64,000 nt of DNA, from assembly GCA_965217895.1 (NCBI GenBank), contig CBDCJV010000002.1:4160001-4224000 (forward strand). The letters are read 5' to 3'. Under the pieces are notes generated by a model. That model saw only the letters and a list, made by a program, of their open reading frames with translations, did no database searches and was not told the DNA's origin. Shown in pieces: positions 5,927 through 22,085 of this stretch; the first letter of the stretch is position 1, and every line of letters begins with the position of its first letter. Position numbers and translations under genes: made by a program. Origin of the DNA: Waterburya sp. (GTDB lineage Bacteria; Cyanobacteriota; Cyanobacteriia; Cyanobacteriales; Xenococcaceae).

Positions 5927-6074
5927 GTTTCTAAAAATTATTAGTTAATTTATCTGTGAAACTGCAATTCTGCTCTGAGTTTTAATCTTGGCTTAGAGCT
6001 AAATCACATGGATGTTCACTTAAATATTTCTATAAATTGCCCTAACTATAATTCTTAGCGATCGCTTTAAAATT

Positions 6075-6135
6075 GGTGGGCAATAATTATTTGATTGAAT
6101 ATTGCTAGCCAATTTCTGGAATTTGCCCACCCTAC
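6075..6135. repeat. REP-like palindromic element
   Basis: GGTGGGCAA (6075-6083) pairs with TTGCCCACC (6123-6131), followed by CTAC. Confidence 0.55.
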
Positions 6136-6209
6136 GACTAACTGTCCTAACTGTTAGTTTATTGCTATTCTATAATTTAACTTTAAAACAAATCGGCTGA
6201 ATTTTTTCT

Positions 6210-7193
6210 ATGACTATCCTTGTAACAGGAGGAGCAGGATACATTGGCTCTCATTCTGTCCTGACATTGCAAAAAGCAGGTTACGAGATAATCATACTCG
6301 ACAACCTAGTCTACGGTCACCAAGACCTTGTAGAGACTGCATTAAAAGCTAAACTAATTGTGGGTAACACTTGCGATCGCGCTTTATTACAGCAAATATT
6401 TTCCGATCACCAAATTGAAGCCGTAATGCACTTTGCAGCCTACGCTTATGTGGGGGAATCAGTTACTAAGCCAGCAAAATATTACCATAACAATGTGATC
6501 GGCACTTTCACCCTTTTAGAAGCGATGCTGGAGGCAAACGTCAAGAATTTTGTCTTTTCTTCTACCTGTGCTACTTATGGTGTACCTGAATCTGTGCCGA
6601 TCGAGGAAGAACAGCCTCAAAATCCGATCAATCCCTATGGAGCTACTAAACTGATGGTAGAGAGGATTTTACAAGATTTTAGTCATGCCTACGATTTTCG
6701 CTCGGTATGTCTGCGCTATTTTAACGCCGCAGGAGCAGATCCAGACGGTAATTTAGGAGAAGACCATAATCCTGAAACTCATCTCATTCCTTTAGTTTTG
6801 CAAACTGCCTTGGGTCAAAGAGAATCAATCTCTATTTTTGGTACAGATTATGACACCCCAGACGGAAGCTGTATAAGAGACTATATTCATGTTTTAGATA
6901 TTGCTCAGGCTCATATATTGGCTTTAAAATATCTCTTGAATGACGGCAAAACAGACGTTTTTAACTTAGGCATTGCCAATGGTTTTTCGGTTAAGGAAGT
7001 AATTGAAACAGCTCGCAAAATAACAGGAAAAGAAATAAAAGCGGTAGAATGCGATCGCCGTGCAGGAGATCCTCCCGTTCTAGTCGGTAGTGGTGCAAAG
7101 GCTCAGAAGATATTAGATTGGCAGCCAGAGTATTCTAATTTGGAAGATATTATTACCCATGCTTGGCAATGGCATCAAAAACGCCATGCGTAG
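6210..7193 (+). CDS. galE: UDP-glucose 4-epimerase
   Basis: TGGAGYIGSH, HFAAYAYVGES, YGATK, LRYFNAAGA, ETHLIP, RDYIHV. Confidence 0.95.
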   Translation: MTILVTGGAGYIGSHSVLTLQKAGYEIIILDNLVYGHQDLVETALKAKLIVGNTCDRALLQQIFSDHQIEAVMHFAAYAYVGESVTKPAKYYHNNVIGTFTLLEAMLEANVKNFVFSSTCATYGVPESVPIEEEQPQNPINPYGATKLMVERILQDFSHAYDFRSVCLRYFNAAGADPDGNLGEDHNPETHLIPLVLQTALGQRESISIFGTDYDTPDGSCIRDYIHVLDIAQAHILALKYLLNDGKTDVFNLGIANGFSVKEVIETARKITGKEIKAVECDRRAGDPPVLVGSGAKAQKILDWQPEYSNLEDIITHAWQWHQKRHA

Positions 7194-7456
7194 GTAGTTC
7201 AGACTGCTTTAAATCGAGTGGATATCGCCAATCAGGCAAAAGAATAAGTAGTATTTAGCTAACTGAGCTAGCACATAAGTCTTCAGAAAATTTGGTAATG
7301 TGCAATATTTCTGATTAGTTTATTACAGCAGTTTTAACTAGAACTAATATCGATCTGAATTAAATCATAAGAAAACAGACAAAATGTATGATTATTTTTA
7401 TTTAAATAATGGTATAAAATGAATCGCAATTAATTACTAATATATAATCTATTATT

Positions 7457-8417
7457 ATGAGTACCCATAGTACCCATATTGTTACTGGTGTTGTAGGATT
7501 TATTGGTTCTCACTTGGCAGAAACTCTACTGCAACAAGGTATAGGAGTAATTGGTATCGATCAATTTAATGATTACTACGATCCTCAACTCAAAGAAAAA
7601 AATCTAGTTAATTTAAAGCAATTTGCTAATTTCAAATTAATTAAAGATGATCTTGAAAAATTAGATTGGCGGCAGCTTTTGCAGTCAGTTGATGTGGTAT
7701 ATCATCAAGCAGCACAGGCAGGAGTTAGAGCTAGCTGGGGCAAGGGTTTTCTCAACTATACGACCAGAAACATCAATGCTACCCAAATAATTCTAGAAGC
7801 AGCCAAAGATATCAAATCGTTAAAACGAATTGTCTATGCTTCTAGCTCTTCTATTTATGGCAACGCAGCAACTATGCCAACCCCAGAAACTTTGTGTCCT
7901 CAACCTGTTTCTCCTTATGGTATTACCAAACTAGCTGGAGAACGTTTGTGCTGGCTGTATCAGCAAAATTTTGGTGTTACCAGTCACGACCTTACGCTAT
8001 TTTACCGTTTATGGACCGCGCCAACGTCCTGACATGGCATTTCACAAGTTTTTCAAAGCTGCAATTGACGGTGATGCAATCTCTATTTATGGTGATGGGC
8101 AACAAACTAGAGATTATACTTTTGTTAGTGATGTGGTCGCAGCTAATTTGGCTGCGGGAAAGATCCCTGAAGCTATTGGCGAGGTGTTCAATATTGGTGG
8201 TGGTAGCAAAGTAACTCTAATAGAGCTACTTGAAATTATGGAGCGAGTAATAGGACAACCAATACGCAAAAATTATATTGAACGGGCAAAGGGAGATGCA
8301 CGTCACACTAGCGCAGACATAGCTAAGGCTAAGAAAATTTTGGGTTATGCTCCTCAAGTTTCTTTGACTGAAGGTTTGATAAAAGAATGGAAGTGGATTC
8401 AAACTATTTATACTTAG
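7457..8417 (+). pseudogene. NAD-dependent epimerase (UDP-glucuronate 4-epimerase-like), frameshifted
   Basis: ORFs 7457..8032 and 7971..8417 join into one extended SDR (AAQAGVR, YGITK, LRYFTVYGPRQRPDMA) if one extra base at about 7976-7979 (GGT GTT A CCA) is removed. Confidence 0.85.
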
Positions 8418-8459
8418 AAAATGCTCGATCGCTTTTCGATCTGCCATTTAAGTTTTAGG

Positions 8460-9653
8460 CTAAATTGCTTTTTTAGTTAGAGAATTTTCATAAATACTTT
8501 CGTATTTTTTAACAAAAGAATTTAAGCCGTCTACATTAAAGTTAGTTTTAATATGTTTTCTGGCTTTTATGCCTAACTGATGACGTTCATCTTTACCTAA
8601 AACGATTAATTTGCGCCACGCTTTAGCCAATGCTTGAGGATCTTTAGGAGGGACTACAATACCGGTATCTGCGACGATTGCCTCAGAATCACCTATGTCA
8701 GTTGCAACGCAGGGAATTTGACAAGACATTGCTTCTCCAAGCACATTGGGAAAAGATTCGCCATAAGCAGAACTAGTAGTAAAAATATCGAGTGATGTCA
8801 TGATCTCGGGAATATCTTGGCGTTCTCCAAGTAAATGAATTTGTTCGCCAATATTTAAGCTTTTTATCTGATTTGATAAAGCTGAATTGCGATCGTCTAC
8901 ATTAGGTCCTATCAAGATAAAATGCACCTTGGGATAATCCTCAATCAGCTTTGCTGCTGCATTGATTAAATTGGCATGATCTTTCATTGGATGATAACGA
9001 GCCACCGAACCAATCAAAATACTGTCTTTAGCTAGGTTCAAAGACTGACGTAGATTAAATTGGGGGTTAGATACGGGCTTGTATTTAGATATATCAAAAT
9101 TATCGCTAATTGCCACCGCATTGCTAGGATTGTATCCCAAACTGAGATGTTGCTTTTTACCTTTAGCAGCGGAAAACATTACTGTTTCGACCCAGGAAGA
9201 AAGCAAAGCAGTTAACTTGATTGTTGCCACCAGAGAAAGTTTTTCCGCCCTCAAGGAATCTACCGAATGGTGAATGCTCCAAAAAACAGGAACTTTGTCT
9301 GCCGAGAAAAAATTTGCTAGCTGAGCGATCAAATTGGCATGATACATCCAACCCTGAATCAAATCTGGTTGAATCTGGTTTAATAATTTAGTCAATCCGA
9401 TTAATGCTGGGGGCTTGAATACTCCAGGCTGCATACCCAGATCGAATACAGTAATATTTAAGGCTCGAAATCGTTCGACAAATACTCCTCCCTCAATCAT
9501 TGAAACTACGGTTGGGCAAAACCTGTCACGATTTATTCGAGATAACAGTTTGTAGAGCATCATTTCCGCTCCTCCAGTACTCAATCCAGTTATTATAAAT
9601 AGCAGTTTAATCTTTTTGCCTTTAGTATTTGCTTGCTCTAAATCTGATTTCAT
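8460..9653 (-). CDS. glycosyltransferase family 4
   Basis: GGAE, VARYHPMKDH, ESFPNVLGEAM (E-x7-E) motifs. Confidence 0.93.
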   Translation of the reverse strand: MKSDLEQANTKGKKIKLLFIITGLSTGGAEMMLYKLLSRINRDRFCPTVVSMIEGGVFVERFRALNITVFDLGMQPGVFKPPALIGLTKLLNQIQPDLIQGWMYHANLIAQLANFFSADKVPVFWSIHHSVDSLRAEKLSLVATIKLTALLSSWVETVMFSAAKGKKQHLSLGYNPSNAVAISDNFDISKYKPVSNPQFNLRQSLNLAKDSILIGSVARYHPMKDHANLINAAAKLIEDYPKVHFILIGPNVDDRNSALSNQIKSLNIGEQIHLLGERQDIPEIMTSLDIFTTSSAYGESFPNVLGEAMSCQIPCVATDIGDSEAIVADTGIVVPPKDPQALAKAWRKLIVLGKDERHQLGIKARKHIKTNFNVDGLNSFVKKYESIYENSLTKKAI

Positions 9654-9686
9654 TAACTTATTTTCAAATGATATTGATTGTATTTA

Positions 9687-11354
9687 TTAATATGTAGATC
9701 GATCTTTTGAAGAAAGTTGATTGATTTTCTCACCTAGTTTTTGTCTAGCAGAATATAAAGTTTCAGGATCTTTTGTCCAATTTAGCCAATTTTTACCAAC
9801 CTCATGAACTGTTTTCATTGTCCAGTCTTTTTCTCCTAATTTTTTGAGCAGGGAAATATATTCATAATCTTCAATACCGTCTCTAATTCTTTTTAAACGT
9901 ATTGAGGGAACAACTCCATTAATGCCGACGGGAGCGCCAGGATAAAGCAGCATTCCCTCTCCAGAAAAATTGCGATCGCCTTGTTGATAAACAGAGGGTT
10001 TACGCCAAGGATCATCAGACCAAAAGGGAAGATTACTATCATCATCACTCCAACCATCAACTTGAGAGTATAAAACTCCTGTTAAACCTAGGCTTTGAGC
10101 TATAAAACCTTGAGGAATACGAAAATTAATTGGTGGAACATCAATCTGCCATTGAGGCGAATATCCAGTTTGATGTCCAGTATAAAACCAGACTTCATCT
10201 CCTTGCTGCATTACCTCGGCAATTTGCTGCTGAGAATCTTGATACATTTGAGGCTGCACTACCCAAATATCCACATCATCATAAAATTCGGGTTTTGGTT
10301 TCATCACCACCAAGTTTTTTGCCCCCGCCTGATGAATATTATGCGCCCATTGCTTAATTGGCTGTTCAATGTTGGGGCATTTATCAATCTCATCAGCAGA
10401 ATAAACAAACTTAAGTAGCTTTGGATCGTATAAGTCAAATGCCTGTTTAATTTCTTCGACATTAGGGGCAGCACTTAATTTACAGGTGCTATAGTTGGCA
10501 CCACTCCAAAAAGGTAAACGAACAGAATTTAAACCCCATCGATCAATCAACTCTTTTTGTTTCTCAGGCTTAATACGCTTACCTGGCATAACCTTATGCT
10601 TGAGCAATTCCTTGATTAAACTTTCTCCCCGATCTTGCCAAGGATTAAAGTAAGAATTCATTGTCGGTTGTAAGGGCAACTCAAAATTCCACACGGTCAA
10701 CTCAATATTGCCCTTGCGTTCTCCGCGATCGCTAGTGACGGTATAAATTCCCTGGTATTTCCCTGGAGGAGTATCTCTAGGTACATATATATCTACCCAA
10801 ATAGGTTGATTTTTGTTTGCTGCTAAATCAAAAGGGACAGCATCAAAAGTTGCCCCTGCAAGATCTTTGCCAGTAGTCGAATCAGCGAAAGGAATTAGTC
10901 CATCAGCATACCAGCCCATGCCTGGAGTAAGATTACCAACCCAGTTTTCAGGACTAGGGCGATCGACATACACATAATGTTCTCGATATAGGGTGATGTT
11001 TTGTGCAGAAATGATCTCTTGGTCGGCGTTACGTAAATCGGATATGGCGACATCAACATTGCTCAGATATTTATTGTTTGATGTTTGAATTACAATTTGA
11101 AAAGATTCATATTCACCCCGAGCAGTCTGTAATTGGATTTTGTTTTTTTGGAGAGAATCGGCTACGCCGTTTTGTTTTAGATGAAAGTTATTTGATAGTT
11201 GATTATTATCTCGACTAATACTTTCTAGGGAGGAAGCTGCCCATATCTTAAAAGAACTAGATACATTAGTGCTTTGAACAACAAAATTATGGGTAAAAAA
11301 TACTACTACCAAAGTCAGTAAAATTAAAATTATGCTTTTAGACGATAATTTCAT
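9687..11354 (-). CDS. secreted/anchored DUF4091 (GH123-like) glycoside hydrolase
   Basis: N-terminal hydrophobic segment; ARGEYESFQ, QPIWVDIYVP..TPPGKY, DE pair (YSADE), GEGMLLYPG..PSIRLKRIRDGIEDYEY. Confidence 0.8.
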   Translation of the reverse strand: MKLSSKSIILILLTLVVVFFTHNFVVQSTNVSSSFKIWAASSLESISRDNNQLSNNFHLKQNGVADSLQKNKIQLQTARGEYESFQIVIQTSNNKYLSNVDVAISDLRNADQEIISAQNITLYREHYVYVDRPSPENWVGNLTPGMGWYADGLIPFADSTTGKDLAGATFDAVPFDLAANKNQPIWVDIYVPRDTPPGKYQGIYTVTSDRGERKGNIELTVWNFELPLQPTMNSYFNPWQDRGESLIKELLKHKVMPGKRIKPEKQKELIDRWGLNSVRLPFWSGANYSTCKLSAAPNVEEIKQAFDLYDPKLLKFVYSADEIDKCPNIEQPIKQWAHNIHQAGAKNLVVMKPKPEFYDDVDIWVVQPQMYQDSQQQIAEVMQQGDEVWFYTGHQTGYSPQWQIDVPPINFRIPQGFIAQSLGLTGVLYSQVDGWSDDDSNLPFWSDDPWRKPSVYQQGDRNFSGEGMLLYPGAPVGINGVVPSIRLKRIRDGIEDYEYISLLKKLGEKDWTMKTVHEVGKNWLNWTKDPETLYSARQKLGEKINQLSSKDRSTY

Positions 11355-11482
11355 AGTTAATTTTATTTTTAACAGCTTCGTATACTTTGAAACAAGCCTT
11401 AAATTGCCAAGCTCTAAACAGTTTTTATGGTTCTAAAATGTGAATTTTAACCGTAAATTAATTAAAATTCGCTACGTTGTTC

Positions 11483-12733
11483 TTAAATGTTTTTGAGGCT
11501 ACTTTGTCGGCTCAGATTCGCCATCACAGCGTAAGATGTCAGCAATAAAAATGAACTCATAGTTGTGTGGCTGAAAAATCCCCATAAGAGTAAAGAAAAT
11601 AAAAATGGGGCGACATTTTTTTTGTGTTCGCCCTGCGCTTTCCAAACACAAGCTAAAAGCAGTAGGGGATAAATTAAAGCACCTAAAAAGCCAAATTCTA
11701 CCATTTGATCTAAGTAAATATTATGGCATCTTTGGGGAACCCCTTCTGCCGTTCGAAAATTGGGGTTAGCTCCTGAACCTAATCCATTTCCGAGAAAAGG
11801 TTTTTTGTTAAATTTAGCCCAAGCTTCTTCAACGTGGACAAGACGTGAATTTTTTGAATCATCCTCTTGTCCTAAAGGATCTAATAAAAAATTAACCCTA
11901 GCCAGAGTTCCTTCATTAAAGAGCGTTGTGCCATCAGCAGTTTTTATATATGTCAAATTATTTATCTGAACTGACAAGATTGTGACCGCCATAAAAGCAG
12001 ATAATAACATTAATGGTATTTGAGAGCGTAGAATAACCTTATTTAAAAGATACAGCAAAACAACCAATCCCCAACCAATCATTGCTCCGCGAGAAAAAGT
12101 GCAGATAATTCCTATAAAGACAAACAAGGCAAAAAATAAACGATATTTAGGCTTAATTAAATCAATACTAAAAATTAATCCCAAAATTAATGCCACTCCA
12201 GCAGTATTGGCATCTTCGTAAAACCCTGAAGATCTTCCTGGAGCGTGTTGGAGTAAATAAAAAGATAGAGGATTAAAAAATTCCCAAATAAACATAAAAA
12301 CATTTGCCAAGGTAATAAACAAAATTGTTAATCTTGTCCATTTTAAGACTATTGAATGTTGAGAAAAAATCAGTAGCATTACAAGTAAAAATAATATCGG
12401 TCTAATCTGATCCTCAAATAGCTGCATATCAGGAATTTGCGGTAAAACTAGAATTGATAGTAAAAGAACTGCCAGATAAAAACCGCACCAAACCACAACG
12501 GGAATAGCAACGTGAATAAAACAATTTAGAATTCCCACAAACACTGGAATTCCAAGCACTATAAACAAAATAAGCCACCACAAAGGAATTCCAAGCCCTC
12601 TTCCTTCTAGATAAACATCTAATTTTGAAAAAAATATTAATATGGCAGCCACCGCCAAAAATCCTTGGTAATAAACTAAAAAAGTTTTTTTGTTTTCTAA
12701 TACTTGCGCTTCATATTTGCTAAAAATAGTCAT
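11483..12733 (-). CDS. O-antigen ligase / Wzy-like polymerase
   Basis: Multi-pass membrane protein with RSSGF...N, TFSRGAM, PFLGNGLG, HNIYL...EFG. Confidence 0.88.
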   Translation of the reverse strand: MTIFSKYEAQVLENKKTFLVYYQGFLAVAAILIFFSKLDVYLEGRGLGIPLWWLILFIVLGIPVFVGILNCFIHVAIPVVVWCGFYLAVLLLSILVLPQIPDMQLFEDQIRPILFLLVMLLIFSQHSIVLKWTRLTILFITLANVFMFIWEFFNPLSFYLLQHAPGRSSGFYEDANTAGVALILGLIFSIDLIKPKYRLFFALFVFIGIICTFSRGAMIGWGLVVLLYLLNKVILRSQIPLMLLSAFMAVTILSVQINNLTYIKTADGTTLFNEGTLARVNFLLDPLGQEDDSKNSRLVHVEEAWAKFNKKPFLGNGLGSGANPNFRTAEGVPQRCHNIYLDQMVEFGFLGALIYPLLLLACVWKAQGEHKKNVAPFLFSLLLWGFFSHTTMSSFLLLTSYAVMANLSRQSSLKNI

Positions 12734-12956
12734 TTGATTAATTAATAATTTATATACAGGATTTATGCAAAAACATTAAACATAGTAGTGAAGGATAATT
12801 AAACTAATTTCATTACCGCCCCAAATACCTCATTACCTCAAACACTACACTACCCAACAGCAGGATAATTTTATTTTCTTTTTACAAACGGTCACTTAGA
12901 GTAGAAAAATAAAGAGTCACGAAACACGATTACATCCCGTATCAGCAATATCTTTA

Positions 12957-13085
12957 TTACTTATTTCTACTTCGCCCTAGTAATTTATTTCGTAATTTCA
13001 AAATGCGATCGCGATATTTAGCTGCTTCTTCAAATTCTAAGCTTTTGCTATTCTTGTTGAGTAGAATAATGTGTTGGTAATCCAT
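12957..13085 (-). other. displaced copy A of the uvrB 3' end; possible 42-aa UVR-motif micro-ORF
   Basis: 12957-13040 matches uvrB 14684-14767 at 74/84 nt; reads [42 protein letters not shown]. Confidence 0.85.
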
Positions 13086-13157
13086 AAAGTGACGCGGGAT
13101 AGAAATATTTGTCAACACTGCAATTTCATATGGTCACTTAATTTGATCCGATATCTT

Positions 13158-13613
13158 TCACTTGTGTTTTTCCATGAACACGAACGACATATTTTTGTTG
13201 ATCTTTTCGCTGTTGAATATTTTATATCCGAGACGCTCGTAAAGACTAATATTTCGTTTGCTCTTATGACCAGTAAACAATTCAAAATGCTGTGCCTGCC
13301 CAAAGCATGATTCGATTTGCTCCATGAGTGCCGTGCCAAAACCTTGCCCTTGAAAATCAGGATGAACAATGAGCCTTTCAACATAGCAAATACTTTCCCT
13401 CTGATATCCTCTGACTGAGCCTATAATCTTGCGCTTAACTTGAACCTTTAAGAAAATTTTGCTGATAAAGTCGCTTTTTAACTCGTTTAAAGTTTGTGTC
13501 AACGGTGGAATATTGAAGTCGTTATAAAGTCGTGCCTCGCTCTGATATGCCAACTGTTGCAGTTCGAGAATAGCTGCTGCATCTTCAGGCGAAGCGTATA
13601 TAACGTTTTTCAT
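13158..13613 (-). CDS. GNAT family N-acetyltransferase
   Basis: RLIVHPDFQGQGFG acetyl-CoA motif, N..LYERLGY; ATG at 13613. Confidence 0.9.
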   Translation of the reverse strand: MKNVIYASPEDAAAILELQQLAYQSEARLYNDFNIPPLTQTLNELKSDFISKIFLKVQVKRKIIGSVRGYQRESICYVERLIVHPDFQGQGFGTALMEQIESCFGQAQHFELFTGHKSKRNISLYERLGYKIFNSEKINKNMSFVFMEKHK

Positions 13614-13860
13614 TAGTTTCAAACATTTTTCTTATTTGAGGAGGAAAAACACTATCGAGTGGAACAGTTTCGCCACTTGCAATTTCTTGTCGTACCATTG
13701 CAGCCATCTGATCCCATTGATCATCAGTCATCGTAGCAAAACTAGTTTCCCATTTGTGTTCATCTTGCAATTCAGCTAGAAGCCGAGATGCGATCGCATC
13801 TTGTTGATCGGGTAGAAGTTTTTCAATTTGAGCGATCGCCTGTTGAAGCAGTTCAGTCAT
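13585..13860 (-). CDS. small acidic protein resembling antitoxins normally paired with RelE/ParE-like toxins
   Basis: MTELLQQAIAQIEKL..DQQDAIASRLLAELQDE..W..SFA pattern; family recalled, not searched. Confidence 0.6.
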   Translation of the reverse strand: MTELLQQAIAQIEKLLPDQQDAIASRLLAELQDEHKWETSFATMTDDQWDQMAAMVRQEIASGETVPLDSVFPPQIRKMFETNEKRYIRFA

Positions 13861-13904
13861 AGTTTCAAATATATATTGCTGAATTTTAATTAAAGCTGTT
13901 TGTT

Positions 13905-13971
13905 TTAAACATTATTCCTATTATTTTTACCCAATAACTTATCTCGTAATTTCAAAATGCGATACTTAGCA
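13905..13971 (-). repeat. displaced copy B of the uvrB 3' end
   Basis: aataacttatctcgtaatttcaaaatgcgat is identical to uvrB 14706-14736; a 6-bp deletion removes the HIP1 site; reads [21 protein letters not shown]. Confidence 0.85.
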
Positions 13972-14063
13972 ACTTTTTGTAATTTTTAGGCTACGGTAAA
14001 TATCTTTAAGTCATTACTAAAGTTTCGAGTCCGTCCACTGTAAGTCTTGGTTAGCCTACTCCA

Positions 14064-14396
14064 CTAAAATAATGTAAGAATACCAGTAGTTTGGTCGCTA
14101 TTTAATGCCTTAAGATCATCATAATGATTTCGCAAAATTGCTTCAATATTGGCTGTTTTACAGTTGCCTCGTCTAATCCAAATAATTTTGGGTGGAAAGC
14201 CTTTCAATGTACAAATATCGCTAAAATCTGCATCTTTGGTAACAATTAGAAAACCTTCTTTTCGCGCATATTCCCAAACCTCAGTATCTGGAACTCGATC
14301 AAGATTTAAATTGTAAACGTGATTAGAACCAGCATAAATATCTCCCAGGCAATTTATCAATACTGGAGACAAGTTCTGATCGAAAAGCAGTTTCAC
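14064..14396 (-). CDS. DUF5615 PIN-like toxin (VapC45/Mut7-C-like)
   Basis: GTG start at 14396 (MKLLFDQNLS) overlapping the upstream stop (GTGA); D.EVWEYA, IVTKDADF, PPKIIWIRRGN. Confidence 0.9.
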   Translation of the reverse strand: MKLLFDQNLSPVLINCLGDIYAGSNHVYNLNLDRVPDTEVWEYARKEGFLIVTKDADFSDICTLKGFPPKIIWIRRGNCKTANIEAILRNHYDDLKALNSDQTTGILTLF

Positions 14397-14617
14397 GCTT
14401 TTATAACCATTAACATTTTTTCTCGGTCGGCAGCATAACTCAGGCAAGCCCGAATGTCGTCCTCAGTTATGTAGGGAAAATCTTCAAGAATTTCTTGATG
14501 AGACATGCCTGCTGCAAGATATTCCAGAATGTCGTAAACTGTAATTCTCATCCCTCGAATACAGGGTTTGCCACTCCGCTTGCCAGGTTCCATAGTTATT
14601 ATGTCTTCGTAGCTCAT
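14393..14617 (-). CDS. DUF433 antitoxin
   Basis: PGKRSGKPCIRGMRITVYDILEYLAAGMS..EILEDFP. Confidence 0.93.
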   Translation of the reverse strand: MSYEDIITMEPGKRSGKPCIRGMRITVYDILEYLAAGMSHQEILEDFPYITEDDIRACLSYAADREKMLMVIKA

Positions 14618-14683
14618 TACTTTTACCTCGCGAAACCATGCTAAGATTTGATTCTAATCTATGGAATTTTTCTAAAGTACTAT

Positions 14684-16693
14684 TTATTTATTACTTTTTC
14701 TCCCTAATAACTTATCTCGTAATTTCAAAATGCGATCGCGATATTTAGCAGCCTCTTCAAATTCTAAATCCTTGGCCGCCTGTTTCATTTTGGCTTCTAG
14801 CTGTTCTATTAAGTCAGGAATCTTTTCTAGGGGCAGATCGTAAGATTTCTCATATACTTCTTCTAGCTGTTCAGAATTCAAACGACGAGAAATATCCAGA
14901 TAAGCCAAGATCGAATTCTCTTCATTCTTGATAATTGGCTTGGGAGTAATATTATGACGCTTATTATATGCCACCTGAATATTGCGCCGTCTTTCTGTCT
15001 CTTCAATCGCCCTTGCCATACTATTAGTCAAGTTGTCAGCATACAAGATTGCCTGTCCTTGTATATGACGCGCAGCCCTACCGATGGTTTGAATAATTGA
15101 ACTTTCTGAACGCAAAAAGCCTTCTTTGTCAGCATCGAGAATTGCTACTAAAGATACTTCGGGTAAATCTAAGCCTTCCCGCAGTAAGTTAACCCCAATT
15201 AAGACATCAAACTCGCCTTTACGTAAAGCCTGAAGAATTTCGATACGTTCAATTGACTTAATCTCCGAATGCAAATACTGTACTTTTACATCTCGTTCGG
15301 CAAAATATTCGCTAAGGTCTTCCGCCATTTTCTTTGTTAGGGTAGTAATTAAAACCCGTTCTTTTTTGGCTACTCTTTCATTAATTTCGCTTAAAAGATC
15401 GTCTACCTGTCCTTCTGTAGGGCGAACCAAGATCTCAGGATCGATTACTCCTGTGGGACGAATAATTTGCTGCGCCACTCGATCTTCTGACTGTTCTAAT
15501 TCCCACTTGGCAGGAGTAGCCGAAACAAAGATGCACTGGCTCACTTTTTGCCAAAATTCATCCGCTTTGAGAGGACGATTATCCGCAGCCGAAGGCAATC
15601 TAAAGCCATGCTCAATTAAAACTTTTTTCCGCGCCTGATCGCCGTTATACATCCCCCGTAGTTGCGGTACAGTAACGTGAGACTCATCTATTACTAGTAA
15701 CCAATCGTCAGGGAAGTAATCTACCAAACATTCAGGAGGATCGCCTGGATTTTTTCCTGCTAAATGTCGAGAATAATTTTCTACGCCATTACAATATCCA
15801 ACTTCTTGTAATAGTTCTAAATCGTATCGACACCTTTGTTCTAATCTTTGTGCTTCTAATAGTTTATTATCAGTCTCAAGTTCAATTAAACGAGCTTCCA
15901 ATTCATCCTTAATATCTTGAATAGCCTTTTCTAATCTTTCTTGGGGAGTAACAAAGTGACGAGCAGGATAAATACTAACACCATTCATACTTTGCAGTAT
16001 CTCTCCCGAAACAGGATCGACATAGCGCAAAGCTTCAATCTCATCCCCAAAAAACTCAATCCGAATAATGCGATCTTCATAAGCAGGAACGATTTCTAAG
16101 ACATCTCCCTTCACCCGAAACCGCCCTCGTTCTAGTTCAATATCATTACGGGAATACTGAACTGTAACCAAATCTCGCAGTAGTTCTCGTTGATTCACTT
16201 CCATGCCTAACTTTAAAGGTACGGCTGCCTTTAAATACTCCGCAGGCATCCCCAAACCGTAAATACAGCTAATTGATGCCACCACAATGACATCTTTGCG
16301 TTCAAAAAGCGATCGCGTTGCCGAGTGACGCAACATATCAATCTCGTCGTTGATTGAGGCCGTTTTTTCAATATAAGTATCGCTAACGGGAATATATGCC
16401 TCTGGCTGATAGTAATCGTAATAGCTTACAAAATACTCCACCGCGTTATCAGGAAAAAATAGACGTAACTCGTTACACAATTGAGCAGCTAAAGTTTTAT
16501 TGTGTGCCAGAACTAAAGTCGGCTTCTGCACATTGCTAATCACGTTGGCGATCGAAAAAGTCTTACCTGTACCTGTTGCCCCTAATAAAGTCTGGAAGCG
16601 GTTGTTTGCCTGTAATGACTCCGTTAATTGCGCGATCGCACTGGGCTGATCTCCTTGGGGTTCAAAAGGTGCTTGCAGATTAAATAAGCTCAT
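14684..16693 (-). CDS. uvrB: excinuclease ABC subunit B
   Basis: [18 protein letters not shown] beta-hairpin, DESH, C-terminal UVR motif. Confidence 0.99.
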
Positions 16694-16851
16694 TGAGAAG
16701 ATATATTTATACAGTCACATTCTTTAAAATAACGCAAATATCGGTATTAGTTCATTTGTTTTAAATTCAGAAACTATAAAATTAAAACAGTAAGCTGAAT
16801 ATCCTGATTAATCATGCCTGTAGTCAGTTTCATATCTAAATGCACTATAGT

Positions 16852-17742
16852 TCACTTAGTTTTATTTATACTGCTTCGTATAGCTTGAGTTAGCAAATCT
16901 ATCGCCAACCCAGGCAATCTTTTTTCTGGTGAGGCTGCTATGCCAACAGGTAATTCTAAATTCAGATTATTAATAGTTTTGACAACGGTGTTACGAGGTG
17001 GAGGGACAAGAACAGCTAGTGGCATGACTCCAATCCCTAAACCTGATTCAACCATACTTTGTAGAGCTTTTAAACTCATAATTTCTATCACAGAATGGGG
17101 ACTGACACCGCAGGATATAATTTCTTTTTCAAAGATTTGTCGGTAAGGACAATTAGCTTCTGTCAGTAGCAAACGTTCTTCAGATATGTCTGTTACTTCA
17201 ATCGTCTTTTTTTGACTTAGATAATGCTCTGCTGGAATTAACAACCTCATAGAGTCGTAAAACAACCTTTCAAAGCTTAAACCCAATTTTGTATCAGGGG
17301 GCGAACAGATAGCTAAGTCTAATTTACCCTCTGTAAGTCGCTGGCTAATAGTTTGAGTCACACCTGTTTCTAAGGTTAAACGTACATTGGGGTATTGACG
17401 ACAAAAAGATACTAATAAAGAAGGCAATCTTAGACTGGCAACAGGTTCTATCGAGCCGATACGCAGATGTCCAGCTTCTCCTGCAACTAATTCAGACATT
17501 TCTTTTTGCAACATTTCTGCACGGTGTAACAAAAAACTTGCATGAGTACTTAATGCTCTACCAGCCGTTGTCAGCTGAACTTTTTTGCCTCGACGTAAAA
17601 ACAATTTTGCGCCTAATTCAGTTTCTAATTGTTGAATATGCAGTGTAATAGTTGATTGCGCGTATTGAAGTTTTTCGGCTGCGTTTGAAAAGCTTCCTAC
17701 TTCCATAATTGTCTGAAAAGTTTGTAGATGACGAAATTCCAT
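16852..17742 (-). CDS. LysR family transcriptional regulator
   Basis: N-terminal HTH (GSFSNAAEKLQYAQSTIT..IQQLE.ELG..LF.R) and substrate-binding domain. Confidence 0.95.
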   Translation of the reverse strand: MEFRHLQTFQTIMEVGSFSNAAEKLQYAQSTITLHIQQLETELGAKLFLRRGKKVQLTTAGRALSTHASFLLHRAEMLQKEMSELVAGEAGHLRIGSIEPVASLRLPSLLVSFCRQYPNVRLTLETGVTQTISQRLTEGKLDLAICSPPDTKLGLSFERLFYDSMRLLIPAEHYLSQKKTIEVTDISEERLLLTEANCPYRQIFEKEIISCGVSPHSVIEIMSLKALQSMVESGLGIGVMPLAVLVPPPRNTVVKTINNLNLELPVGIAASPEKRLPGLAIDLLTQAIRSSINKTK

Positions 17743-17755
17743 CGGTAATTCTTTA

Positions 17756-17768
17756 TCAGTAAAAATGA
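17756..17768. promoter_or_regulatory. putative LysR binding box in the divergent promoter
   Basis: TCAGTAAAAATGA: T-N11-A with TCA/TGA dyad next to the LysR start. Confidence 0.45.
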
Positions 17769-17862
17769 ATTAAAACTGCATTTATTATATATTTACAAAT
17801 AAAAGACTTGAATTTACGATTATGAATAAGTTGAGAATATGTATTAAATCTAAGCAAAATTC

Positions 17863-18183
17863 ATGAACAATATCGAAAAGCTATTTTTCGCTAACTGGAA
17901 ACAGCAACCAGCGCAAGAAATATTTCCTGGTATTCAAGTTTATTCAATGTGGCAAGGAATAAACTTGAAAAAAGCTTTGGTCGTAACAATTGAAGCAGGT
18001 AGTAAGTGGCAAGGTGTAGATATCCACAAAACTAGTTCAGAAGAGATTTTTGTTGTTAGCGGTACATTTAATGATGGCGATCGCAACTATGAAGTTGGTA
18101 CATTTATTCACTATCCAGTAGGCACTAGTCACATACCACAGTCAGACACAGGATGCACTCTTTTTGTTTTTTATCCTGATTAG
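17863..18183 (+). CDS. ChrR-like cupin domain protein
   Basis: H...SEEIFVVSG.F.D, G.FIH.P.G..H.PQS..GC. Confidence 0.85.
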   Translation: MNNIEKLFFANWKQQPAQEIFPGIQVYSMWQGINLKKALVVTIEAGSKWQGVDIHKTSSEEIFVVSGTFNDGDRNYEVGTFIHYPVGTSHIPQSDTGCTLFVFYPD

Positions 18184-18277
18184 AGTTTAGCTGGCACTCT
18201 AAGGTTATATTTTTTTCTTAAGGTGATCGCTCTATTTAATCGATCCTACTCCTTGGTTAAAAGCTGATAGCTAAGAA

Positions 18278-19534
18278 CTAAGAGCTTTCTAATGCTGCAT
18301 CAGCTAAAACATTTTGCTTTGAAGTCAACAATTTTACTGCTTCTTGGTATTGCTTGTCTGCGTCTGTGGCAATTTGCGCGTAGGTAATCGGGTTTTGTGA
18401 TATGACATCGTCAGGCATAATTCCCAATTTATTGATATCTGTGTGGTTAGGAGTCTCATACTTAGCCACTGTTACGGCTAATCCTGCGCCATCAGGTAAT
18501 TCAAACAAAGATTGAATTAAACCTTTGCCAAAAGTTTTCTCACCTACCAATAATGCTCTCTCATTGTCTTGTAAAGCTCCTGCCAAGATTTCGCTAGCAC
18601 TGGCAGTACCTTGATTAACCAAAACCACTAAAGGAGCATCCGTCAGCATTCCGTCATTGGCATCAAAGCTGCCCAAGGCTCCTTGGCGGTTGACTGTATA
18701 GACAATAGTGCTATTGTTCAACCACATTCTGGCAATTTCAACCCCTGACTGTAACAAACCTCCAGGATTATTCCTTAAGTCTAAAATATAAGCTTCTGCA
18801 CCTTGTTTCTCTAATTTGCTAACTCCATGAGCAATTTCTTTGGCTGCATTGGCACTAAATTGATTGAGACGAACATAGCCAATTTTTTCATCGGTGCTGG
18901 TATCTAAGGCAGTGAAGACAGGATTAAGAGAAATGCGATCGCGTACTATATTTACAGTATGGGGTTTAGTAGCCTTATCCAAACCAGACTGCACCCGCAG
19001 GGAAACTTTAGTGCCAATAGCACCACGCATTTTTGCTGCTGCTTCATCTAGAGTAATAGTTTTGGTGTCAACTCCATCAATTTCTAAAATGCTATCTTTT
19101 GGTTGAATTCCTGCTGTTTCGGCAGGAGAGCCAGCCAAGGGAGAAATAACTTCAATCAGCTTGGTTTCGGGATTGACGTTGATCTGTAAACCAACTCCAG
19201 AAAGTTCTCCTGAAGTATTAACCTGTAAACTATGATATTGCTCTGGTCGTAGTAGTCTAGTAAAAGGATCGTCCAATTTAGCCAGCATCTCTTCGATCGC
19301 CGTATAAGTTTCGTCGCGATCACGTAGGGGCTTTTTAACAAATTTTTCCCGTAGCTTCCACCAATTTTGATGGTTGAAGCTTTCATCTACATATGACTGG
19401 TTGACAATCCGCCAAGACTGAAGCAGTAACTTTTGCTCTTCGGTAAAAGCTTGAGCCTGAGAAGTGTACCAGCCAAAAGAAGACACGAAATAGAAAAATG
19501 TTAGTAAGGCGATCGCAAAAACTTTTTTGACCAT
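18278..19534 (-). CDS. ctpA: D1 C-terminal processing protease (S41A)
   Basis: PDZ domain, LDLRNNPGG, TASASE, TFGKG; divergent from petB as in other cyanobacteria. Confidence 0.92.
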   Translation of the reverse strand: MVKKVFAIALLTFFYFVSSFGWYTSQAQAFTEEQKLLLQSWRIVNQSYVDESFNHQNWWKLREKFVKKPLRDRDETYTAIEEMLAKLDDPFTRLLRPEQYHSLQVNTSGELSGVGLQINVNPETKLIEVISPLAGSPAETAGIQPKDSILEIDGVDTKTITLDEAAAKMRGAIGTKVSLRVQSGLDKATKPHTVNIVRDRISLNPVFTALDTSTDEKIGYVRLNQFSANAAKEIAHGVSKLEKQGAEAYILDLRNNPGGLLQSGVEIARMWLNNSTIVYTVNRQGALGSFDANDGMLTDAPLVVLVNQGTASASEILAGALQDNERALLVGEKTFGKGLIQSLFELPDGAGLAVTVAKYETPNHTDINKLGIMPDDVISQNPITYAQIATDADKQYQEAVKLLTSKQNVLADAALESS

Positions 19535-19996
19535 GAGAAAATTTTGGGGTTACATCTTAGATTATTTTAATTTATAAAATCTTAATTAATTGTTACGCAA
19601 AAACTAAAAATTTTTTGACCAGCGCGCAAGCTTCGACAGTATATTTTTGGGATACACTGGTTATCCTGCCCTAAATATGGCGTATAATACGATAATAAAT
19701 AAAGCCACCATAGCTTAAAGCTATGTTACATTTTTTAAAGAGGTGAGAACCATTTTATTTATGAGTTCTTTCCCCTGATGGACTTAAACAATAGATATAC
19801 CTATTTGTGCCGTTTGCCTTTGTGCAGCAAGGCTTTGAAAAAGTTGGCACTCTTTTATCTGAAGGCTTGATGGCAGTCTCGCGTATCCACAGGTTCAAGC
19901 AAAGTAATCTTGAATTGTAAAGATAGCTAAGACTCAAAATAAGCTAATTCGGTAAAATCATCCACAATTATTTTTGTTAGCTAATTTATAGGCTTC

Positions 19997-20665
19997 ATGT
20001 TTTCTAAACAAGTAACAGATTCAAAAACTTTTCAGTGGTTTGATGAGCGTCTAGAAATTCAAGCAATTTCTGACGACATCACCAGTAAGTACGTGCCACC
20101 TCATGTAAACATTTTTTACTGCTTGGGCGGTATAACTCTAGTCTGCTTTCTAATTCAGTTTGCGACTGGATTTTGCATGACTTTCTACTACAAACCCAGT
20201 GTAGCTGAGGCTTTCACTTCAGTTGAATATCTGATGAACGAAGTCAGCTTTGGCTGGTTAATTCGTTCTATCCATCGCTGGTCAGCCAGCATGATGGTTC
20301 TTATGATGATTCTTCATACTTTCCGCGTCTATCTTACAGGTGGTTTCAAAAAACCCCGTGAGTTGACCTGGATTACTGGAGTAATCATGGCTGTAATTAC
20401 AGTAAGCTTTGGCGTTACTGGTTATTCTCTTCCTTGGGATCAAGTTGGCTATTGGGCTGTAAAAATTGTCTCTGGTGTACCAGCAGCAATTCCCGTTGTC
20501 GGCGACCAAATGGTCGAACTGTTGAGAGGTGGCGCAAGTGTTGGTCAAGCTACATTAACTCGTTTTTATAGCTTGCATACCTTTGTTTTACCTTGGTTAA
20601 TTGCAGTGTTTATGCTGCTACACTTTTTGATGATTCGCAAACAAGGAATTTCTGGTCCTTTGTAA
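19997..20665 (+). CDS. petB: cytochrome b6
   Basis: [33 protein letters not shown]. Confidence 0.99.
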
Positions 20666-20802
20666 ACTAGAAATCATTACTTTGTCAGAGGTTTTAATCA
20701 GCGGTAGCTGATAGATTTCGATTAAAATTGCAAGTAAATTGTATCTAAGCTAGATAAATTATTTCAATTAGCTGATTCCCAAGAAAATTAGGAGAAAAAA
20801 CT

Positions 20803-21285
20803 ATGTCCACTTTAAAAAAGCCCGATCTCAGCGATCCCGCTTTACGCGCTAAGTTGGCTCAAGGTATGGGTCACAACTACTATGGTGAACCTGCTTGGCC
20901 CAATGATTTGCTATATATATTCCCCGTAGTTATTTTAGGAACTATTGGTTTAACCGTAAGTTTAGCTGTCCTCGATCCTGCCACGATTGGCGAACCTGCT
21001 AATCCTTTTGCTACTCCTCTGGAAATTTTACCTGAGTGGTACTTGTATCCTGTATTCCAAATTTTGCGTGTAGTTCCTAGTAAACTATTAGGAATTGCTG
21101 CTCAAACAGCCGTACCTCTAGGGTTGATGTTAATTCCTTTCATCGAAAACGTTAACAAGTTCCAAAATCCTTTCCGTCGCCCTGTAGCTACTAGCCTATT
21201 CATATTTGGAACTTTGGTAACTATTTGGTTGGGAATTGGTGCGACCTATCCCATCGACGAATCCTTAACTTTAGGCTTGTTTTAA
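20803..21285 (+). CDS. petD: cytochrome b6f subunit IV
   Basis: [19 protein letters not shown] motif. Confidence 0.99.
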
Positions 21286-21335
21286 ATCCTAGTTAACTAT
21301 AGGCTATAGGTTTGATTCAAGTTTTAGTTAAGTTT

Positions 21336-21407
21336 GCGAGATATAGTATTTCGTTATTCATCATTTTTCATTTTTGTTATGAAGAGTAACGATTGATTGT
21401 ATCTCGC
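21336..21407. terminator. long imperfect hairpin downstream of petD
   Basis: gcgagatatagtatttcgttattcatcat pairs imperfectly with atgaagagtaacgattgattgtatctcgc. Confidence 0.55.
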
Positions 21408-21535
21408 TGTTTAATTTAGTAACGCAATTTCTGAGAGATTGTCGTAACTTATAATTTATTGGTATCATGAATTGATTGAGGAGTTGATAGCTAAAATTAC
21501 ACCTCTTCACCTGCATACTAATTAGAGAAGAAAGG

Positions 21536-21560
21536 AAGTGGGGACAGCCCGCTTTTTTTT
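21536..21560 (+). promoter_or_regulatory. rimP leader hairpin / attenuator-like terminator
   Basis: AAGTGGG-gacag-CCCGCTT followed by a T run upstream of rimP. Confidence 0.6.
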
Positions 21561-21626
21561 GTTGTCTAAATTAAATAAACAATTCCAACTCAAGCAAAGT
21601 TGGCTGACGACAACCTTTTCCTCAAC

Positions 21627-22085
21627 ATGACTCATCCTGTTGTTCTCCAAATTATTGAACTAGCATCTCCCCTAGCTGAAGAACTCAATCTAGAGTTGGT
21701 TGATGTGGTTTTTCAAACAAATAAAAACCCACCTATTTTAAGAATAGATGTTCGCAATCCTAATACAGATACTAGTTTAGAAAATTGCGAACAAATGAGC
21801 CGTATTTTAGAAGAGAAACTGGATCTTGCTGAAATTGTTCCTGGAGCTTATGTTCTAGAAATTTCTAGCCCTGGTATTTCTCGTACTTTAACTACAGAGC
21901 GAGAATTTGTGGCATTCAAAGGTTTTGCTGTCAAGATTAATACTTTTGCTCCTTACAAAAATCATAAACAATGGCAGGGAAGACTACAGCATAGAGACGA
22001 AGCAGCAGTTCATATCAATAAAAAAGGAAAAGCGATCGCCATTCCCCGTAATTTAATCGCCAAAGTAGAGCTTGACGATGAATAA
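21627..22085 (+). CDS. rimP: ribosome maturation factor RimP
   Basis: MTHP start, YVLEISSPGI.R.L; first gene of the nusA-infB operon. Confidence 0.95.
   Translation: MTHPVVLQIIELASPLAEELNLELVDVVFQTNKNPPILRIDVRNPNTDTSLENCEQMSRILEEKLDLAEIVPGAYVLEISSPGISRTLTTEREFVAFKGFAVKINTFAPYKNHKQWQGRLQHRDEAAVHINKKGKAIAIPRNLIAKVELDDE

Follow-up and report, generated by a model that had tools for sequence, protein, structure and literature searches.

Why should the 3' end of a single DNA-repair gene occur three times in succession, with small gene modules between the copies? The question is raised by a 64,000-nt stretch of the Waterburya sp. genome (the window, whose positions are used as coordinates below). 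Here uvrB (14684..16693, minus strand; 669 aa, identified from its open reading frame (ORF) and Pfam) is followed on the same strand by a DUF433 gene, a DUF5615 gene, a displaced uvrB end (copy B), a 91-aa ORF, a GNAT acetyltransferase gene, another displaced uvrB end (copy A) and an O-antigen ligase gene. The live 3' end that is duplicated (14684..14767, minus strand, by BLAST) contains one octamer of the highly iterated palindrome HIP1 (GCGATCGC, 14732..14739). The array belongs to a set of about 30 such places in the genome, where extra DNA separates two divergent versions of one short piece of host DNA with an outer edge at or near HIP1. On balance we think it probable that it arose when DNA taken up from a relative paired by homology on one side, within the gene body, and was joined HIP1-to-HIP1 on the other.

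Displaced gene ends and HIP1 across the genome

The genome is near complete (5.29 Mb in two contigs), and its chromosome carries 5,798 HIP1 octamers, an abundance characteristic of cyanobacteria. A partial copy of the gene's own 3' end, on the same strand and at most 8 kb downstream, accompanies 22 of 3,867 ORFs, and many of these copies begin at HIP1. An annotation-free self-comparison yielded 406 local direct repeats, of which 209 remained after filtering (30-1500 nt long, at least 150 nt apart, at most four copies in the genome); some of the 209 are plain paralogues or internal gene repeats. We found a HIP1 centre within 8 nt of the edge in 62 of these low-copy repeats, compared with 16.7 under random shifts (maximum 28 in 1000). 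Where both copies share a HIP1, it is flush with the edge in 27 of 68 instances, against an expectation of 7.3 derived from the positions of shared 8-mers (0 of 100,000 simulations), although the P-values are overstated because two arrays each contribute several repeats that are not independent, which counts against our interpretation. Shared 8-mers other than HIP1 lack such a preference for edges (11.9% vs 12.5%), and identity just beyond the repeat edge falls to 2-15 of 30. The 49 HIP1-edged repeats with at least 78% identity fall, by our own count, into about 30 places.

We annotated 107 ORFs, 102 from 20 of the HIP1-edged places and five from two relatives (G061 and G072). The host genes include mfd, cysS, bacA, and genes for a SpoU methylase, MobA, an NDH-2-like oxidoreductase, and MFS and SSF transporters. 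A mirror layout, in which a displaced gene start ends at HIP1, occurs at comM, a glycosyltransferase gene and an FAD oxidase gene. Toxin-antitoxin (TA)-type genes are present at about eight of the 20 places; the cargo of the others, which reaches 6.3 kb, is metabolic or regulatory. For genes with HIP1 in their last 200 nt, intergenic matches to the gene tail begin at HIP1 in 11 of 16 local cases and in 2 of 10 distant ones; the figure for heads is 3 of 5.

Larger clusters are also found in this genome. Between glnB and pyrF (L096, C2:2376000-2386000) lie about eight TA-type modules, among them BrnT-BrnA, HicA, DUF433-DUF5615 twice, DUF6887/6888 and DUF29, separated by short HIP1-rich repeats and with no integrase among the scanned ORFs. 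Two TA clusters with nested HIP1-edged repeats, containing Uma2, PIN, PemK and IS200-like remnants, are located behind mutL and beside two pilin-like genes (L101, C2:3515000-3527500). At the end of a DUF58 gene (L097, C2:2427488-2430810), a HIP1-edged repeat encloses 3.1 kb of cargo consisting of a cyanophycinase-like peptidase S51 gene and an ATP-grasp gene.

Filled and empty alleles

Ten sites of this genome were each searched in five relatives. A single-copy, cargo-free allele was found at seven of them: bacA, cysS (first module), comM, SSF, NDH-2, MobA and the glycosyltransferase gene. At TrmH and mfd the relatives have other right flanks, which makes the empty state unreadable, and at a transglutaminase gene the filled state is shared with G023. 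Arrangements that resemble a donor, with the same cargo followed by HIP1 at another location, occur in G004 (DUF433-DUF5615) and G017 (SSF cargo), and in G073 the cargo is followed by a near-HIP1 sequence. Blocks of the MobA cargo start or end at HIP1 in G017.

We then compared both copies with the corresponding sequences of relatives. Agreement with these is better for the displaced copy at bacA (12 sites to 1), uvrB copy A (6:3), NDH-2 (12:9), the glycosyltransferase head (20:12) and SSF (5:4), and over all the genes compared 68 sites favour the displaced copy and 57 the live end. As a dead copy decays, parity would already imply many foreign live ends. Taken by itself, only bacA clearly points to a native displaced end; preference for the live end at other genes can come from decay of the dead copy. 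Upstream of HIP1, mapping of the donor tract in 150-nt windows gave identities mostly of 85-100% with no step, the relatives (85-95% alike) being too diverged.

Displaced tails of the NDH-2 and transglutaminase genes remain in G023 and G020 (L331, L383, L345) at loci that lack the parent gene; orphan tails may arise in this way. In G073 (L214) the mfd end region is present at both ends of contig C2, probably as a circular overlap, together with further copies of the mfd tail.

Displaced uvrB ends in other genomes

Displaced uvrB ends are present in 6 of 25 genomes of the genus, some of which have short downstream sequence (this genome, G023, G013, G008, G021 and G015), and in 3 of 14 further ones (G061, G072 and G073), for a total of 9 of 39. 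The cargo differs among them, as the original prediction of variable cassettes had anticipated: G013 has a HicA-HicB-like pair (named by eye), which is present in decayed form in G008 and G072, and G061 has an antitoxin-ParE pair and a group II intron. G022 has the empty form of the filled G013 locus, with the same right flank. In G008, G015, G021, G072 and G073 the displaced copy starts at a HIP1 half-site.

Outside the family, a uvrB-end copy was found at 1 of 15 loci (G033), and in a further non-family set at 3 of 31 (G099, G091 and G098). The copy in G099, a genome chosen for its second match, is 313 nt long, 96% identical, and starts exactly at HIP1. The G033 locus (L057) shows a very recent duplication (99.5%) of the 188-nt end, 2 kb downstream, neither edge of which is at HIP1. 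Additional matches to the uvrB tail were left out of these counts: those on other contigs of G007, G009, G010, G024, G062, G063, G043, G044 and G047 correspond to the UVR domain of uvrC, and that in G071 to a second full uvrB.

In G040 (L059) the HIP1 of the live uvrB tail is interrupted by a small insert like small dispersed repeat 5 (SDR5), which preserves the reading frame and lengthens the gene by seven codons. In G008 (L033), 1.2-3.3 kb behind uvrB, there is a tandem run of at least five similar ORFs of 105-127 aa with leader-like repeats and Cys-rich ends, which by eye we take to be like NHLP-type peptide precursors.

Composition and history of the uvrB array

The array is real and not an artefact of assembly. 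Contigs from runs X1 and X2, which are of one sample and perhaps of the sample used for the assembly, match both modules with zero mismatches and even depth, and G023 independently has a version of module 1 (90% identical) that precedes a displaced uvrB end of its own. Module 1 consists of the DUF433 gene (14393..14617, minus strand; PF04255, E 3e-27) and the DUF5615 gene (14064..14396, minus strand; PF18480, E 2e-34), whose start overlaps the DUF433 stop. We take DUF433 to be an antitoxin-type family and DUF5615 to be a PIN-like, toxin-type family, and the pair is a candidate type II TA operon of two genes.

Copy B (13905..13971, minus strand) matches the live end at 37 of 40 nt (13924-13963, E 1e-9 in a BLAST search of the whole genome), with about seven further matching nucleotides upstream, beyond a 6-nt deletion by which HIP1 has been shortened to ATCGC. 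Its left flank is shared with the displaced copy of G023, which retains an intact HIP1; after the 6-nt loss, copy B runs on as the end of a different allele. This scar looks like that expected of an out-of-register join at ATCGC, and later slippage would give identical letters.

Module 2 is a composite rather than a single two-gene cassette. Its 91-aa antitoxin-like ORF (13585..13860, minus strand) has no Pfam or NCBIfam match; its DNA is 84% identical to that of a G061 gene located directly behind uvrB and followed by a ParE-like toxin gene, and this ParE-like partner is missing from the present array. The GNAT gene (13158..13622, minus strand, by Pfam) comes next, followed by a truncated second DUF433 gene, consisting of the upstream region and first seven codons (13065..13152, minus strand; 91% to G072). 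In contigs of runs X5 and X7, from another study, a uvrB tail is joined straight to GNAT and the antitoxin gene is absent (joint 13636 to 13924), and in run X4 tail B and the antitoxin gene follow other DNA, beginning exactly at the ATCGC half of HIP1. These alleles suggest that the array was built by at least three gains and some deletion.

Copy A (12957..13040, minus strand) matches the live end at 74 of 84 nt (E 3e-24, whole-genome BLAST), and reaches about 13049 if compared with other alleles with one gap. Its HIP1 (13005..13012) is 28 nt from the aligned edge. Nine codons differ from the live end, six of them synonymously.

The order and coordinates given in the original prediction thus agree with our ORF, Pfam and whole-genome BLAST results, as do its counts for copy A. 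Its proposal that copy A is a formerly functional or foreign terminus is supported by the 6:3 preference reported above, copy A being closer to the live ends of relatives than the present live end is. Serial, integrase-free capture of small variable modules and the involvement of HIP1 are likewise supported; what did not hold was the description of module 2 as one two-gene cassette.

A fourth relic of the uvrB end lies in the same genome 3.1 Mb from uvrB (G000, C2:1038786-1038831), just after a HIP1 that holds a small palindromic insert. It has an indel in common with the displaced copy of G023 but comes after the MATE gene, the same gene that in G023 comes after the displaced uvrB copy. Outside the array, a dispersed repeat of about 80 nt (12819..12900) has 16 further matches in the genome and is also present in G019, G020 and G023. 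A promoter scan was uninformative, with seven matches where 7.6 are expected by chance, and so were terminator-like sites (0 vs 1.5). No excised circle appeared in the material examined, which consisted of assembled contigs and so would not reveal one.

A proposed mechanism for gene gain at HIP1

The arrangement can be accounted for by the following scheme. The donor would carry a gene end, then cargo, then a HIP1. One side of the incoming DNA would be anchored by RecA-type pairing within the gene body and, as the observed edges suggest, the free side would be joined to recipient DNA at the HIP1 of that gene's tail. This would keep the gene intact, now with the end of the donor, and would place the recipient's old end, from HIP1 onward, behind the cargo; in the mirror event, a gene start that stops at HIP1 would be displaced. 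Once cargo has a tail on each side, it could spread and stack by crossing over within the short tail, and copy B looks like a product of such an event. TA pairs, which resist loss, would be frequent as cargo probably for this reason and for their small size.

In homology-facilitated illegitimate recombination (HFIR), joins would be expected to favour strong, GC-rich matches. In our model HIP1 would be used as the strongest microhomology common to any two AT-rich cyanobacterial sequences. We simulated the exact matching of gene tails to 2-kb stretches chosen at random; once a stacking energy of at most -11 to -12.3 kcal/mol was required, HIP1 made up 39-65% of the matches, with which the observed share of joins, 11 of 23, agrees. 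A dedicated enzyme would then be unnecessary, provided that strong GC-rich matches are favoured. The geometry, the locality of the matches and the donor-like loci with cargo followed by HIP1 would fit an HFIR-like product, anchored by homology on one side and joined through a short microhomology on the other. Its formation is predicted to depend on RecA and transformation; ComEC is present in this genome.

Several observations weigh against this interpretation. By length alone (at least 8 nt), HIP1 accounts for only 7% of the simulated microhomologies, so the passive model needs the energy weighting. The scheme also has a gap at the first arrival of cargo at a new gene end. At uvrB itself, we found no relative with an empty allele that has the right flank of this genome; the copies of G023 and copy B begin 11-14 nt upstream of HIP1, and copy A and the copies of G013 and G061 begin 28-37 nt upstream, while the 188-nt copy of G033 is without HIP1. 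Relatives side with the live end at cysS (displaced to live, 4:10), comM (4:9), MobA (2:5) and TrmH (3:4). At bacA a single inserted base is the whole difference between the two copies over the first 65 nt past HIP1, and the copies share a base that is absent from the three closest relatives, which a simple one-step model does not predict.

The remaining points of this kind concern generality. In six other genomes, 200-kb tiles taken without bias contained 65 repeats, 5 of them HIP1-edged where 3.5 are expected; the proportions were 1 of 7 in G020 and 1 of 11 in G023, and genus loci gave 6 of 36 against 2.9 (P = 0.06). The excess is weak at 37 cyanobacterial DUF433 loci (5 of 31 repeats vs 2.1, P = 0.05), and at PemK loci (8 of 47 vs 2.5) five of the eight come from one locus. 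HIP1 is moreover rejected as a general mark of synteny breaks, as alignment ends against relatives are flush with it in only 3 of 82, 0 of 115 and 0 of 132 cases. Individual HIP1-edged repeats do occur at DUF433 loci in Nostoc T09, a metagenome-assembled genome of Acaryochloridaceae and Planktothrix, and around PemK in G038 and G113, and 43 HIP1-poor non-cyanobacterial DUF433 loci gave 0 of 76. Outside the genus, the HIP1-edge signal is thin.

Possible active roles for HIP1

A tentative alternative, which we consider possible and less probable than passive joining, is that the joint is made by an activity directed to HIP1, either cutting or nicking at the methylated site or a site-specific recombinase. 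A break might be repaired from a donor or sister chromosome so as to duplicate the target, or a circle of tail and cargo, excised HIP1-to-HIP1, might re-enter through homology in the tail. Many copies do begin at the ATCGC half-site (G008, G015, G072 and copy B, together with loose ends of X3 and X4 at 13963), but small palindromic insertions that later entered the HIP1 of the dead copy account for most of this, and several copies begin off-site. A crossover inside the repeat would fit the bacA copies, whose HIP1-proximal halves are near-identical. From the literature, SDR5 inserts between positions 3 and 4 of HIP1 and site-specific recombination at HIP1 is reported in PCC 7002 (both described in PMC4390886), and the effect of HIP1 on transformation depends on methylation (10.1101/2024.09.10.611283); against this, an electrophoretic mobility shift assay, as cited in PMC13756078, found no HIP1-binding complex. 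The observed share of HIP1 joins is already reached by passive microhomology, and the HIP1-edged copies are mostly local, which indicates that homology is still needed.

A more far-reaching proposal, which we put forward as speculative and rather improbable, is that HIP1 is a phylum-wide splice word, kept about once per kb by selection for completing one-sided homology with a HIP1-to-HIP1 join. The join would possibly involve a methylation-dependent cutting or annealing activity, and would allow genes to be captured and stacked at any gene end or start, without an integrase and with the host gene preserved.

Integrases, integrons and local duplication

Integrative elements that insert into gene 3' ends restore the host gene and displace its old end, and integron arrays grow beside a fixed point. 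The same geometry is seen at uvrB, where the gene is restored and displaced fragments lie at the far end, and in three genomes the copy begins at a similar point, near -84 to -93. The copies might accordingly be attR remnants of elements inserted at the uvrB end, or a relic of an integron or of a cluster of attC sites lacking an integron integrase (CALIN), with the integrase since lost. We regard this as very unlikely and largely refuted. The best IntI match scored 54.7 bits against a cut-off of 265. The attC motifs have the form RYYYAAC...GTTRRRY, and no RYYYAAC-GTTRRRY pair 40-140 nt apart was present on either strand in 12700-14800 (motif search, with no covariance model run). The uvrB-end copies fold no better than shuffled sequences (z 0.2 to 1.4) and form no hairpin. 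The integron-like mechanism of the original prediction is therefore not supported, and neither is any special role for uvrB or DNA repair, the same layout being found at many unrelated genes and at gene starts.

Its observation that no integrase lies nearby holds, the nearest tyrosine recombinase being about 62 kb away, and no transposase is evident by eye among the ORFs of 6000-22000, where no family-model search was made. More widely, 46 uvrB loci gave no tblastn match to nine of the ten tyrosine recombinase domains of this genome (serine recombinases were not searched), and no tyrosine recombinase was found among the scanned cargo ORFs from 20 HIP1-edged loci; one lies 1.7 kb outside the NDH-2 site. 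Starts of the uvrB copies vary from -36 to -315, so there is no single fixed crossover point, and the targets are many unrelated genes that have only HIP1 in common.

Local duplication followed by decay, or an error of assembly, in which case HIP1 would mark alignment edges merely through its conservation, is most improbable of all and refuted for the uvrB locus: it would suit the paralogues and internal gene repeats noted above, but not the abrupt edges, the single-copy empty alleles without cargo, the preference of relatives for displaced copies (68 sites to 57), or the agreement of short-read contigs and of module 1 in G023.

Relationship to known systems

The function of HIP1 has been debated for some thirty years. 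An uptake signal, a Chi-like site and chromosome structure are the roles now proposed (PMC13756078, 10.1101/2024.09.10.611283), and a genome-wide footprint at natural joints of gene gain would offer a third, concrete role. Filled and empty alleles make the question directly testable by transformation, and suggest one-armed integration as a route for engineering. Such joining would explain the pile-up of TA and other small modules behind cyanobacterial core genes without integrases, and even in its passive form HIP1 would raise the rate of non-homologous gene acquisition.

HIP1 has been reported at recombination joints in a smtB deletion in PCC 6301, in plasmid recombination in PCC 7002 and in SDR5 insertion (PMC13756078, PMC4390886), and integration in PCC 7002 is improved when the homology arms contain HIP1 (10.1101/2024.09.10.611283). 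These reports share with our loci the octamer at the joint, and SDR5-like inserts occur in the HIP1 of several displaced copies; they differ in describing deletions, plasmids, 21-nt repeats or two-armed constructs, for which uptake-signal or Chi-like roles are proposed. A 2026 account lists deletion, SDR5, structural and uptake roles, and its main text does not use the words 'junction' or 'microhomology' (PMC13756078). We found no published report of HIP1-edged displaced gene ends in a search that did not extend to older literature and supplements, and the Microcystis case mentioned below may bear on novelty. Unlike integrative elements, integrons and CALINs, the present loci have no integrase, fixed crossover or attC, involve many unrelated targets and include mirror cases at gene 5' ends.

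HFIR, as described in PMC6382021, combines one RecA-dependent homology anchor with a join of 3-10 nt during natural transformation and predicts both directions, as does our proposal. It is documented in Acinetobacter, Streptococcus and Pseudomonas, and we found no test of it in cyanobacteria in the literature. In contrast to HFIR, a single motif here accounts for roughly every second join, and joining takes place within the homologous stretch, with duplication of host DNA as the result.

The closest likeness is to insertion with long target duplication (Furuta, Abe and Kobayashi 2010, PMC2853133), described mostly in competent species and once in Microcystis. As here, the insert is shorter than 20 kb, the direct repeats exceed 30 bp and vary in length, the empty site is single-copy and there are no mobile-element genes; we observed this combination at seven of ten sites and in G013 compared with G022. 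That system is defined for restriction-modification genes, with near-identical repeats, and is tied to their DNA cutting. The present cargo, by contrast, contains no pair of R and M genes and consists of TA, GNAT, metabolic and regulatory genes; the copies are allelic variants 79-96% alike, events are stacked, and the edge is at HIP1. The structure is thus insertion with long target duplication, minus the restriction-modification cargo and plus a HIP1 edge.

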